Source: Myxococcales bacterium (lineage in GTDB: Bacteria > Myxococcota_A > Polyangia > Polyangiales > DASUME01). From it: a stretch of DNA of 64,000 nt. A program made the translations under genes and the position numbers. Below are positions 3,002 to 7,367 of the stretch, in pieces (position 1 is the first letter of the stretch; each line of letters begins with the position of its first letter). Below the pieces are notes generated by a model. It had not been told where the DNA came from and made no database searches. It saw nothing but the letters and a program-made list of their open reading frames with translations. The stretch covers positions 9,024,001-9,088,000 of the forward strand of contig JASGJH010000001.1 in assembly GCA_047601445.1 (NCBI GenBank). The letters are read 5' to 3'.

Positions 3002-4747
3002 CTAGGTGCGCTCGAGCAGCCAGTCGCCCAACACCAGCGCATCGAGCGGGCTGTCGACGAAGCGAGCCAGGGCTTCCGACGGTGTCGTCACCAGCACGTC
3101 GTTTTGGCTCAGGCCGGCCACCAAAAGCATGGGGATGCCACTGCGCGTCTGAAGCAAGGTCAAGAGCTCGAACAGGGTCGAGCTGCTCTCGCGCTCCACC
3201 GTGTGCACTCGGCCTGTGCCGTCGGCGCGTGCCGCGCCCGGGACCAACGGCAGCTTCTCGGGCCGCAGCGGGAACACCTTGTTCATGAAGGGCACGTCGT
3301 CGTGGAGCGCGTACCAGTCCTTGGCGTGGTCGCGTCGGATCGACGTTCCGAGACTCGCCACGGCGGGATCGATGGCGAGCGCCCTCGCAAGGGCCTCCCG
3401 GGCCTCCGGGCGCCGCGGATCCGCCAACACGACGCGATGCCCGAGCGGCTGGAAACCCCATTCCGCACGTCCCTCGCAGAGGGCCACGAGCTTGCCGCGC
3501 TCCAGCAACTCCACCACGGCGCGCGTTCGCTCCGCAGGGCGCTCGGGACGTTGAAGGCGCACACGCGCCGCTTCGAGCTCGGAACGACGATTCGCGAGCA
3601 GGGATGCCACTTCGTCCGCCTCGAAGTCGGGCCCGAGGTAGGCGTGTGCCAGCGGTCCGTGGTGCTTGGCTCCGCGCTCCTGAAAGGTCGCAAAGAGGGC
3701 TGCTCCCACTGCGCCGGCGGCGTCGCCGGCTGCGGGCGGGACGTAGGCGCGCTTGAAGGGCGTGTTGAGCGTGATCTTGCCGTTCGCGACGGCGTTGAAC
3801 GCGCAGCTGCCGGCCAACACCAGGTGCAGCGAGGGGCGCTTGCGGTGAATGGCGTGCAGCAAGTGAAAGAAGGCGCGCTCGTACATGGCTTGCACGGAGC
3901 GCGCGATGTCGAGGTGACGCGGCTCGATGGAGGCTCCGGGAGCGCGCGCAGGTCCGAGCAGATCCTCGAGGGCCGCCGTGTAGCCTGGCCCAAGCGTGGC
4001 GTCTGCACCGTGCACCTCCTGCGAGCTCGCCCAGCTGGGCTGTCGCAGGAAGCGAAAATCGAGTTCGAATCCGCCGTCGCCCCTGAGGCACACGACCTTC
4101 GCCAAGGACTCCACCTGGGTGGGCTTGCCCCGAGCCGACAGCTCCATGACCCGCTCCTCGTGGCCGCGCGCGAATCCCAGGTACTGGGTCATGGCCTCGT
4201 AGAAGAGGGCGAGCGAGTGAGGGAAGTGCAACCGCCCGTCGATCTCGAGCTGATTCTGATGTGCGTAGCACCAGGCTGCGCTGGCGAAGTCTCGCAATCC
4301 GCCGAGCGAAAGCCCCACCGCCTCCTGCCAGGGAGACGTGTAGTAGGCCGCGGCGAGCTGGGCCACGTGGTGCTCCACGAAGGCGATGCGTCCACCGAAG
4401 CGCTCCTCCGGGAACGCCTGCGCGAGCGAGTCCTCGAGCGAGTGGGGCTGAAGTCGGTTGCGAAGCTGCTGCATGACGACGCCCAGGTTGGGCCGGGTCT
4501 GCACCATCTGGGTCAAACGTTCGAGGTCGTTCGCGCGGGGGTCCTCGCTGACCGCCACGACGTGCACGTCGGCCAGGCGCAGCTTGGCTTCGGCCAAGCA
4601 AAAGCGAATCGCGTGGGCGGGGAAGCCGGACCAGTGCGCCGCGCGACGAAAGCGCTCCTCCTGGGCCGCGGCGAGCAACTTGCCGTCTACCACGATGCTG
4701 GCAGCCGCGTCGCCGTGGTTGGCATGGACCCCCAGAATGACGCTCAC
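3002..4747 (-). CDS. Carbamoyltransferase (NodU/CmcH/TobZ family) with degenerate active-site motifs
   Basis: ILGVHANHGDAAAS..DGKLLAAAQEERF, PHSLALFYEAMTQYLGF and PAAGDAAGAVGAA; GTG start at 4747 follows GGAGG (ORF-track start 4912 looks too long). Confidence 0.88.
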   Translation of the reverse strand: MSVILGVHANHGDAAASIVVDGKLLAAAQEERFRRAAHWSGFPAHAIRFCLAEAKLRLADVHVVAVSEDPRANDLERLTQMVQTRPNLGVVMQQLRNRLQPHSLEDSLAQAFPEERFGGRIAFVEHHVAQLAAAYYTSPWQEAVGLSLGGLRDFASAAWCYAHQNQLEIDGRLHFPHSLALFYEAMTQYLGFARGHEERVMELSARGKPTQVESLAKVVCLRGDGGFELDFRFLRQPSWASSQEVHGADATLGPGYTAALEDLLGPARAPGASIEPRHLDIARSVQAMYERAFFHLLHAIHRKRPSLHLVLAGSCAFNAVANGKITLNTPFKRAYVPPAAGDAAGAVGAALFATFQERGAKHHGPLAHAYLGPDFEADEVASLLANRRSELEAARVRLQRPERPAERTRAVVELLERGKLVALCEGRAEWGFQPLGHRVVLADPRRPEAREALARALAIDPAVASLGTSIRRDHAKDWYALHDDVPFMNKVFPLRPEKLPLVPGAARADGTGRVHTVERESSSTLFELLTLLQTRSGIPMLLVAGLSQNDVLVTTPSEALARFVDSPLDALVLGDWLLERT

Positions 4748-4906
4748 ACAGCCTCCCGTCGAAGCGCGCCCGCGGGCGCGCAAGCGAAGATACGTGTGTC
4801 CCCACCAGGGACCACGTCGCCGCGAGGAGCGTAGCTGCTTCGCCCCCGACGGCACGTAGTGTTCCTCAGTATTTGCCAGTCTTCTCTTGACCGAATAGCC
4901 GGTTCG

Positions 4907-5054
4907 GCCCACAGGTAGAGATACCCGCGGCGGGGGTTTCCGCTGCTGGGCAACCAGGCGACTCTGGTTGTGGGCTCGCGACGCCAGGTAGGCGCGCGCG
5001 CTTCGGCTGGGTCGCTGTCAGCGCGAGGACGGGGGTATCCGTCCCGCAACGGAG
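4907..5054 (+). promoter_or_regulatory. Structured thrS 5' leader with two GGU-loop hairpins (putative tRNA-Thr-mimic translational operator) and SD
   Basis: Hairpins 4927-4946 and 5023-5047 share the apex CGGGGGT(T/A)TCCG; further stems GCCCACA/TGTGGGC, GGTA-GAGA-TACC, ACCAG/CTGGT; SD GGAG at 5051-5054. Confidence 0.6.
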
Positions 5055-5064
5055 CAACGACAAT

Positions 5065-7035
5065 ATGATTAGCGTGAAACTCCCGGACGGAGGCGTCCGC
5101 GAGCTTGCCGAAGGTGCAAGCTCTTTCGACCTGGCCTCTGCAATCGGACCCGGACTCGCCAAGGCCTCCGTAGCCGCCAAGGTGAACGGCGAAGTGGTGG
5201 ACTTGAATCGCCCGTTGCCCAACGGCGCCGAGGTTCAGCTCCTCACCAAGCGCGACGCCGACGCGCTCGAGGTGCTGCGGCACTCGGCCGCGCACTTGAT
5301 GGCCGACGCCATCCTGCGCGTGTTCCCCAAGGCCCAGCTCACCATCGGCCCCGCCGTCGAGGACGGCTTCTACTACGACATCTTCCTGCCCGAAGGGAAG
5401 ATCACGCCCGACGACTTCCCCAAGATCGAGGAAGAGATGGCGCGCATCGCCGACAAGGCCGCGCCCTTCGTGCGCTGCGTGTCGAACTACGACGAGGCGA
5501 ACGAGCACTTCGCGCGCTACCAGGCCATCGATGGCGGCCACAACAAGTTCAAGCAGGAGATCGTCAGCGACATCAAGGCGCGCGGGGACGAACTCACCTT
5601 CTACAAGCACGGCGACTTCATCGACCTCTGTCGCGGCCCGCACGTGCCGAACACGGGGTGGCTCAAGCACGTGAAGCTCACCAAGCTCGGCGGCAGCTAC
5701 TGGCGTGCCGACGCCAACCGCGAGCAGCTCGTGCGCGTCTACGGCACGGCCTTCTTCGACAAGCAGGAGCTCAAGGACTACCTGCACATGCTCGAAGAGG
5801 CCAAGAAGCGTGACCACCGTGTGCTCGGCGAGAAGCTCGACTTGTTCAGCTTCCACGAGGAGGCCCCCGGCTTCCCCTTCTTCCACGAGAAGGGCGCCAC
5901 GCTCTTCAATCTGCTCCAGAGCTACATGCGCGGCTTGATCCGGCGCGCCGGCTACCATGAGGTCAAGACGCCTCTGGTGATGAGCGAGGAGCTCTGGCAC
6001 ACGTCCGGTCACTACGACAACTATCTCGAGAACATGTTCTTCACGAAGCTCAAGCTGCGTGATCCGAACCAGCCCGAGAACGTGCGCGACAACGTGATCG
6101 AAGAGCGCCCGATGGCGGTCAAGCCCATGAACTGTCCGGGCCACTGCATCGTGTACCGCACGCGCTTGCACTCGCACAACGAGTTCCCGTTGCGCATCGC
6201 CGAGATGGGCCTGGTCCACCGGCGTGAGCTGAGCGGCGTGCGTCACGGTTTGTTCCGCGTCCAGGCGTTCACCCAGGACGACGCTCACCACTTCTGCCGG
6301 CCCGATCAGATCGAGAGCGAGATCTCGATGTTGATCGACTTCTTCAAGGAGCTCTACACCACGTTCGATCTCAACGACGTGCGGCTCGAGCTGAGCACGC
6401 GGCCTGCCAAGAGCATCGGCTCCGACGAGATGTGGGAGACGGCCGAGGGCGCGCTCAAGCGGGCTCTCGATTCGAAGGGGGTCGCGTACCAGCTCAACCC
6501 CGGCGACGGCGCGTTCTACGGCCCCAAGATCGACTTCCACATCCGCGACGTGCTGAAGCGCTCCTGGCAGTGCGGCACGATCCAGCTCGATTTCTCCATG
6601 CCGGCTCGCTTCGGCCTCACCTACGTGGGCGCCGACGGTCAGCGTCACACGCCCGTCATGCTCCACCGCGCCGGCTTCGGTAGCATCGAGCGCTTCCTGG
6701 GCATCATCATCGAGAACTACGCGGGCGCCTTCCCGCTCTGGTTGTCGCCGGTGCAGGCCATCGTCATCCCCATCAGCGAGAAGTTCGCGGACTATGCCAA
6801 CGAGATCAACGGCAAGCTGCTCGACCTCGGGCTGCGCAGCCAGGTGAACCTCAGCGACGACCGCGTGGGCTACAAGATCCGTGAGGCGAGCCTGCAGAAG
6901 CTGCCCTACGCCATCGTGGTCGGTGAGAAGGAGCTCGAGAATCGCACGGTGAACGTGCGCTCGCGCGACAAGGGCGAGCTCGGTGAGATGGCCCTGGACG
7001 CCTTCGTGGGCTCGCTCGAGGCCTGGAAGAAATGA
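5065..7035 (+). CDS. thrS: Threonine--tRNA ligase
   Basis: TGS domain, editing motifs HSAAH and DLCRGPH, KPMNCPGH, FTQDDAH, GAFYGPKIDF, WQCGTIQLDF, anticodon-binding C-terminus. Confidence 0.99.
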   Translation: MISVKLPDGGVRELAEGASSFDLASAIGPGLAKASVAAKVNGEVVDLNRPLPNGAEVQLLTKRDADALEVLRHSAAHLMADAILRVFPKAQLTIGPAVEDGFYYDIFLPEGKITPDDFPKIEEEMARIADKAAPFVRCVSNYDEANEHFARYQAIDGGHNKFKQEIVSDIKARGDELTFYKHGDFIDLCRGPHVPNTGWLKHVKLTKLGGSYWRADANREQLVRVYGTAFFDKQELKDYLHMLEEAKKRDHRVLGEKLDLFSFHEEAPGFPFFHEKGATLFNLLQSYMRGLIRRAGYHEVKTPLVMSEELWHTSGHYDNYLENMFFTKLKLRDPNQPENVRDNVIEERPMAVKPMNCPGHCIVYRTRLHSHNEFPLRIAEMGLVHRRELSGVRHGLFRVQAFTQDDAHHFCRPDQIESEISMLIDFFKELYTTFDLNDVRLELSTRPAKSIGSDEMWETAEGALKRALDSKGVAYQLNPGDGAFYGPKIDFHIRDVLKRSWQCGTIQLDFSMPARFGLTYVGADGQRHTPVMLHRAGFGSIERFLGIIIENYAGAFPLWLSPVQAIVIPISEKFADYANEINGKLLDLGLRSQVNLSDDRVGYKIREASLQKLPYAIVVGEKELENRTVNVRSRDKGELGEMALDAFVGSLEAWKK

Positions 7036-7367
7036 GTACGCTGGACGATCCGCGTTTCACGCCAGTGGAGCTTCGCGCCCCGCATGGGTCCACGTTCGTG
7101 GAGATCGTGTGGGCCGACGGCAAGGTCACGCACTACGAGAACGACGTGTTGCGCGGCTTTTGCCCGTCGGCGCTGTGGCAGGGCCACCAGGGGCCGCTGC
7201 GCTACATCCCCGGCGGCCAGACCGAGCTACTCGAAATCGAGGAGGTCGGAAGCTACGGCCTCAAGATGAACTGGCCCGACAACAACACGGGCATCTACAC
7301 GTACCGCTTCCTGCGTCAGCTCGGCGAAGTCGAGGGCGATCCTCGCAACATCGAGTTCGGGCGTTAG
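7032..7367 (+). CDS. DUF971 / GBBH-like N-terminal domain protein
   Basis: I.W.DG..H.Y...LRGFCPSA..QGH, EVGSYG and GIYTYRFLR pattern; ATGA overlap with thrS. Confidence 0.8.
   Translation: MSTLDDPRFTPVELRAPHGSTFVEIVWADGKVTHYENDVLRGFCPSALWQGHQGPLRYIPGGQTELLEIEEVGSYGLKMNWPDNNTGIYTYRFLRQLGEVEGDPRNIEFGR

Follow-up and report, generated by a model that had tools for sequence, protein, structure and literature searches.

How is the supply of threonyl-tRNA synthetase (ThrRS) set in a myxobacterium whose thrS messenger appears to carry, directly before its ribosome-binding site, two imitations of tRNA-Thr's anticodon loop? The question arises from a stretch of 64,000 nucleotides (nt), hereafter the window, on the forward strand of a Myxococcales bacterium (GenBank assembly GCA_047601445.1, contig JASGJH010000001.1, positions 9,024,001 to 9,088,000) with a genome of 9.5 Mb and 66% G+C. 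An earlier note, made from the letters of this DNA, had proposed that a thrS leader outside the Gammaproteobacteria holds twin mimics of the tRNA-Thr anticodon upstream of its Shine-Dalgarno (SD) sequence and that these form a translational operator of ThrRS. The leader does belong to thrS: the open reading frame (ORF) that begins with the ATG at 5065 scores 666.7 bits against TIGR00418, for which the cut-off is 383.65. The twin mimics are borne out by their conservation in a clade of thrS genes, and we consider it most likely that the leader is an autogenous translational operator, with a ThrRS dimer seated on both loops and tRNA-Thr giving relief.

In the window, the distal hairpin (A) and the proximal hairpin (B) were confirmed in the sequence as the earlier note had described them, with their coordinates, shared apex, loops, and an SD-like word 3 nt after hairpin B. 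Hairpin A has a 6-nt loop (4934-4939) showing an anticodon-like G34-G35-U36 at 4935-4937, while the 6-nt loop of hairpin B (5033-5038) has G35-U36 at 5035-5036, so that its G35 lies at -30 from the AUG; a 12-nt apex is common to both (4931-4942 and 5030-5041). When the leader was folded in 21 different folding windows, hairpin B formed with a probability (P) of 1.0 in all 21 and hairpin A with P 0.80-1.0 in 16, and the fold of the whole leader had z = -1.66. Taken alone, the window goes only modestly beyond chance: at up to one mismatch the apex occurs three times in it, compared to a shuffle mean of 0.81, and 7 of 100 shuffles reach three. It is conservation that makes the hairpins non-random. 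Exact copies of the apex number two in the window and five in the whole genome, in which a descriptor of the twin arrangement matched once, at this thrS leader, among 355 single-hairpin matches. An origin from a repeat or repetitive extragenic palindromic (REP) element was rejected, since the apex has only those five exact copies, the other three lack a twin, and the spacer between the hairpins is single-copy. A search of Rfam, which had also been suggested, gave no meaningful match for positions 3500-6000, only three chance matches with E above 3.

To compare leaders, we defined the clade by its protein and not by its RNA. A ThrRS tree of 103 proteins (5 partial and 2 duplicate ones excluded) contains a clade of 31 proteins with a support of 0.91, adjoined by a sister group of 6. 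The genome set likewise comprises 31 leaders, including that of the window, after one member without upstream DNA was dropped and a partial protein (L019, 70%) was added. For the metagenome set, 80 loci were collected, from which 5 without a gene start were set aside and 10 below 60% identity were kept apart as a low-identity group; the remaining 65 yielded 57 leaders once 7 duplicates and 1 short leader had been removed. Hairpins were located by an anchor made of GG, a 6-8 nt loop and CC, together with further stem pairs, in which the loop sequence is unconstrained.

Using this anchor, a proximal hairpin was found in 28 of the 31 genome leaders, and in 28 of 28 the loop carried GU with one further offset of two bases to the 3' stem strand, i.e., in the register of positions 35 and 36. 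Among the metagenome leaders, 51 of 57 had a proximal anchor with GU, the other six anchors overlapping true ones, while random genomic anchors held GU in this register in 62 of 1029 cases (6%). Twin GU hairpins, whose conservation in relatives the earlier note had proposed to check, were present in 25/31 genome and 47/57 metagenome leaders. Conversely, twins were seen in none of 6 sister-group, 53 other genome and 10 low-identity metagenome thrS leaders, and a proximal GU anchor alone occurred in 2 of the 53, where start codons are less certain. A test that relied on stems only found at least two GU hairpins in 18 of the 31 clade leaders, compared to 1% of 6200 shuffles. Position 34 may be any of the four bases, position 37 is mostly A and position 38 mostly U or G. 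Thus, GGU is indeed displayed by both loops in the window, as had been claimed, but it is not the conserved trait: relatives keep N-G-U, with position 34 varying. From G35 to G35, the two loops are 29-37 nt apart in 24 of 26 genome twins and 37 of 47 metagenome twins (mode 31-32 nt), with an overall range of 29 to 99 without phase and loops of 6-8 nt. The proximal G35 lies at -24 to -32 from the AUG in 29 genome leaders and at -22 to -40 in 51 metagenome leaders, and 76 of 79 leaders have an SD-like word 13-27 nt past G35 of hairpin B.

We then asked whether the stems covary. When 24 leaders were aligned with MAFFT, two-sided changes appeared at 9 of the 15 pairs, and the covariation score was 0.253, compared to 0.156 for shuffles (0 of 500 reached it) and at most 0.105 when pairing partners were slid. 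In an alignment of 58 matches fitted to the model, which leans towards the structure, the number rose to 12 of 15. With the hairpins anchored by their apex only, both bases of pair 3 in hairpin A, which swaps between C-G and U-A, changed together at least 7 times on the protein tree, and those of pair 6 in hairpin B did so at least 8 times; these counts include 2 wrong distal picks among 78 (L002 and L048), both of which were left out of the wobble count. On the coding strand, the stems contain 66 G-U or U-G pairs versus 26 A-C or C-A pairs, a bias that favours an RNA over a DNA palindrome.

A covariance model (R1) built from 24 genome leaders matched 52 of the 57 metagenome leaders, none of which had been used in building it, all on the sense strand, as well as 8 of 8 further genomes of the order, two of which duplicate earlier leaders. 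No match was obtained in 10 distant, 6 sister and 5 Fibrobacter-titled leaders, or in the E. coli thrS region (L111) at E 0.1. When the window's own genome was scanned, the model gave one match, at this leader, among 150 scored candidates. In a scan of five genomes, with only 150 candidates scored in each, 5 of 5 matches lay before thrS starts; the single-hairpin leader of G004 was not picked up. A scan of 151 genomes of the phylum returned no match with only 36 candidates scored per genome, a depth at which the window's own genome was missed too. Together, these results establish the paired structure, by covariation, along with the invariance of G35/U36, the position of the hairpins and their specificity to one thrS clade, and the sequence comparisons argue that the hairpins are a conserved RNA element confined to that clade.

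Several leaders depart from the common form. Three basal, AT-rich clade members (L093, L130 and L131) also have two hairpins, with CGU and UGU in the loops, but their closing pairs differ, so that both the GG/CC anchor and R1 missed them. In a further twelve leaders (L132, L133, L135, L139, L140, L142, L147, L149, L204, L206, L207 and L208), another small hairpin lies between the twins; its AGCGUU loop is conserved, and it may be a third mimic, displaying CGU. The Fibrobacter-titled thrS leaders (L080, L082, L086, L087 and L089) contain, by eye, one hairpin with a CGU loop and compensated stem differences, possibly another anticodon mimic. At one contig end (G008:C195:89-152), a thrS start is preceded by a second, near-identical copy of the operator, which is probably a strain duplicate in the bin.

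What, then, do the hairpins do? The closest known system is the E. coli thrS operator, which is conserved in close Gammaproteobacteria. According to the parts of the literature consulted, E. coli ThrRS binds domains II and IV of its own leader by their likeness to an anticodon loop and prevents 30S binding (PMC11088916, PMC9976931, PMC3858243, PMC6542539). The two systems are alike in their place in the thrS 5' leader, directly before the SD; in the loops of E. coli K-12 domains 2 and 4, which have GU in the same register and end in U and G; in distance, the G of domain 2 lying at -32 and that of domain 4 at -95, next to the -30 of the window's proximal G35; and in the cognate enzyme, a full-length ThrRS with N-terminal TGS and SAD domains. 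The pattern of conservation also matches the way ThrRS reads its tRNA: in the portions seen of the report on a yeast mitochondrial ThrRS-tRNA structure, base 34 is unread while G35 and U36 are read, and these two bases are coordinated similarly in E. coli ThrRS (PMC4756836). By this analogy, the leader very probably acts in the manner of the E. coli operator. It cannot be filed as its homologue, since there is no detectable sequence homology, although hairpins this short could have diverged beyond detection. In contrast to E. coli, the clade has GC-rich stems with a fixed YGG/CCR apex, loops of 6 or 7 nt, and near-identical twins that are usually 29-37 nt apart (63 in E. coli, 99 in the window).

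Taking the start site, binding, stoichiometry, repression and relief by tRNA from the E. coli case, we propose the following mechanism. Transcription would start near 4922, and hairpins A and B would each offer a 6-7 nt loop whose G35-U36 stand in register with the anticodon of tRNA-Thr. When ThrRS is in excess over its tRNA, the dimer would bind A and B through its two anticodon-binding domains, and the enzyme on hairpin B, 30 nt upstream of the AUG and 3 nt from the SD, would block 30S loading until free tRNA-Thr competes it off the leader. In the window, an inserted, lineage-specific 60-nt hairpin would leave the effective distance between A and B close to the usual one. The window's enzyme has TGS, SAD, catalytic core and anticodon-binding domains. 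Its R606, E623 and R632 align with the anticodon-reading residues R583, E600 and R609 of E. coli ThrRS, and N575 is replaced by D598; such residues are near-universal in ThrRS and do not discriminate. The N-terminal residues at E. coli positions 81, 85, 150, 166 and 199 were tried as operator contacts and dropped, three of the five being common in other ThrRS.

Other known forms of control fit the leader less closely. T-box leaders of thrS, found in Firmicutes and others, tie control to the supply of tRNA-Thr; unlike them, the window leader has no Rfam T-box match and no terminator, and its loops show the anticodon and not the codon. Yeast HisRS and AspRS are described, in the sections consulted, as binding an anticodon-like element of their own mRNA (PMC6542539, PMC9976931), but these mimics are eukaryotic, serve other enzymes and are not a twin hairpin at an SD. 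In the open literature, the scope of our search, no description of the present motif was found.

A number of observations weigh against an operator of the E. coli kind. The U-rich single-stranded domain 3, which in E. coli forms part of a split ribosome-binding site in the portions seen of two reports (PMC3858243, PMC7297116), is absent from the clade leaders. The loops often have 6 nt (both of the window's do), and U or G predominates at base 38, versus A in the host's three tRNA-Thr loops, a departure from tRNA-Thr that the E. coli operator loops share. In two leaders, the twin hairpins stand about 200 nt (L057:1237-1294) and about 90 nt (L119:456-514) from the start codon, distances that simple steric blocking fits less well; a large, folded-looking insert was seen between the twins and the SD in both. 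In 5 of the 21 folding windows, hairpin A had P of at most 0.15 and was mispaired with coding bases near 5077-5085, and the 60-nt hairpin of the proposed mechanism is known from two sequences with one-sided changes only. As to the conservation itself, the nearly invariant GG/CC pairs of the apex contribute no covariation, kinship among the sequences inflates the counts and overstates the significance against shuffles, and the anchor was designed after the clade leaders had been viewed, so that variants with other closing pairs were missed.

Among the alternatives, we first considered the architecture of the 5' end. The earlier note had placed hairpin A inside an elaborate cloverleaf; on that view, transcription begins no later than 4907, and the RNA forms a tRNA-like four-way junction to which hairpin A contributes one arm. 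The sequence does contain the complementary strands for the cloverleaf, and likewise those for a further stem at 4978-5015. The closing stem has no mismatch in the window and retains 6 of its 7 pairs in L002, and across 14 folding windows that include 4907 its P ranged from 0 to 1.0, reaching 0.77-1.0 in six. Its formation requires a transcript that includes 4907-4913, and a start near 4908 would follow from a second promoter-like pair (4873-4878 and 4896-4901). This pair is not kept in L002, whereas the conserved -35/-10 pair places 4907-4913 upstream of the probable start, its -10 at 4910-4915 overlapping the 5' strand of the closing stem. Moreover, the side arms rarely form along with the stem: the GAGA and ACCAG arms had P of at most 0.1 where the closing stem had P of at least 0.77. 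Compensatory changes were not observed, and compact relatives lack the domain. The 4978-5015 stem fared no better, with P of at most 0.10 in 21 of 21 windows and its 5' arm lost in L002, the only long-spacer relative. We therefore regard the cloverleaf as unlikely; it concerns architecture only and would be compatible with a ThrRS operator.

The conserved promoter-like pair deserves closer description. TTGAC lies at -46 to -53 from G35 of hairpin A in 18 of the 78 leaders with a distal hairpin, or 19 including L002, which has it at -49 and whose hairpin was mis-picked in the tally. CA-type hexamers at the same 17-nt spacing were found in L002, L004, L005, L007, L115, L116, L118 and L120, and L118, whose short leader lacks the opposite strand of the closing stem, has nearly the same -10 hexamer. 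A sigma-70 consensus scan and a terminator scan were both empty. From the -35/-10 spacing, transcription probably starts near 4922. Folded from there, the leaders of the window and L002 show hairpin A, a few unpaired bases, a 60-nt hairpin, a few bases and hairpin B. The spacer in the window is GC-rich and folded, whereas that of most relatives is short: the A-B spacing is 99 in the window and 97 in L002, these two only, and 43-86 in 10 metagenome leaders with other inserts. The 60-nt hairpin appears in the minimum-free-energy folds of both sequences, had P 0.61-0.98 in 6 of the 7 folding windows that begin at 4922, and shows one-sided changes only in their consensus fold; tentatively, the spacer is probably this one hairpin, without which the spacing in the window would be 39, with about 10 unpaired linker bases between A and B. 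Some short words in the spacer invited a T-box, SAM-I or HDV-like reading, which was dropped for want of an Rfam match. The features of the locus are collected in Table 1.

Table 1. Features of the thrS locus, in window coordinates
Feature	Position	Strand	Evidence
Promoter -35-like hexamer TTGACC (putative)	4887..4892	+	49 nt upstream of G35 of hairpin A
-10 position, CACAGG (atypical; putative)	4910..4915	+	Spacing, 17 nt after the -35
Hairpin A (distal; analogue of E. coli domain 4)	4924..4950, core 4927-4946	+	Sequence, covariation, folding
Lineage-specific spacer, long irregular hairpin (probable)	4957..5016	+	Closed by 4957-4963/5010-5016
Hairpin B (proximal; analogue of E. coli domain 2)	5023..5047	+	Sequence, conservation, folding
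Shine-Dalgarno-like GGAG	5051..5054	+	Sequence; three bases after hairpin B
thrS, full-length threonyl-tRNA synthetase, xenologous type	5065..7035	+	TIGR00418, domain matches, tree

It is also conceivable that the hairpins are sites for another protein, such as a tRNA-modifying enzyme or a general regulator, or stabilisers of the 5' end, the Thr-like loop being incidental. The departures of base 38 and loop length from true tRNA-Thr loops would suit this idea, as would the sequence-fixed GG/CC of the apex, since protein sites are often fixed in sequence, and hairpin A lies at the probable 5' end, where stabilisers act. Yet an invariant G35-U36 beside a free base 34 is the reading pattern of ThrRS itself, in the portions seen of the structural report (PMC4756836), and the element is confined to thrS in this genome and, among 150 scored candidates each, in the five genomes scanned with the model; we judge this explanation quite improbable. 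Finally, the notion that a transcription factor binds the repeats as DNA half-sites, separated by about three helical turns, draws on the spacing mode of 31-32 nt and on the position of both sites just downstream of a promoter-like element, but compensated stem changes, the 66 to 26 strand bias, loops of 6-8 nt, spacings of 29 to 99 without phase and the lack of such sites at any other gene of the genome make it very improbable indeed.

With an operator of thrS as the preferred reading, we turned to the history of the gene. Among 40 relatives, a thrS 70-95% identical to that of the window was found in nine genomes of the same genus and two others; the remainder had a thrS about 45% identical or partial matches only, in many cases behind tRNA-Val(GAC). 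In the window's genome, tRNA-Val(GAC) is followed by ORFs that, judging by their translations, are presumably infC-, rpmI- and rplT-like, with no thrS (G000:C1:734794-736602), i.e., the ancestral slot is empty. Window-type thrS occurred in 19 of 301 genomes of the order, spread over 4 families (first 200 residues, E 1e-60); it is a patchily distributed xenolog. Records in the clade are titled Myxococcota, Planctomycetota, Deltaproteobacteria, Spirochaetales, Zetaproteobacteria and Pseudomonadota, although titles of metagenome-assembled genomes are possibly wrong. The window's ThrRS is about 47% like that of E. coli and does not group with it in the tree, in which the E. coli enzyme is placed with low support.

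In the region 40-220 nt upstream of thrS, all 6 sister-clade leaders (60-65% identity; L043 and L049-L053) have a GC-rich segment that includes a U-run, preceded in 5 of the 6 by a short Thr-rich leader ORF. They are probable threonine attenuators, and their presence in the same slot fits threonine-linked control of thrS.

In the window, a GBBH-like_N (PF06155) gene (7032-7367, + strand) overlaps the thrS stop; it lies downstream of thrS in 9 of 9 same-genus genomes and had no match in the other loci among L001-L110. On the opposite side, a divergent carbamoyltransferase (NodU-like) gene occupies 3002-4747 (- strand), and its adjacency to thrS is lost in L003. No tRNA gene was found in the window.

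From these findings, a broader picture can be drawn tentatively, which we hold to be possible but somewhat short of probable: a minimal twin-mimic ThrRS operator may have evolved independently and travelled with its gene as a self-regulating cassette, repeatedly replacing the native thrS, while the sister clade carries an attenuator. If this is true, dose control by its own leader could let the cassette replace the native thrS across Myxococcota, Planctomycetota and other lineages, and some sublineages would have added inserted hairpins or a third mimic. Mimicry of tRNA in a thrS leader is a textbook mechanism from E. coli, which is named as the bacterial case in the parts seen of three reviews (PMC9976931, PMC11088916, PMC6542539). 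The present element would add a second family to it, one unrelated in sequence and known in more than 70 distinct natural variants. These would separate what ThrRS needs, namely G35, U36, a GG/CC-closed loop of 6-7 nt and about 30 nt to the AUG, from what appears dispensable, namely base 34, domain 3 and spacer length. The leader is thus a short, testable switch and a ready candidate for Rfam, and it suggests how a horizontally moved essential gene may bring its own regulation with it.
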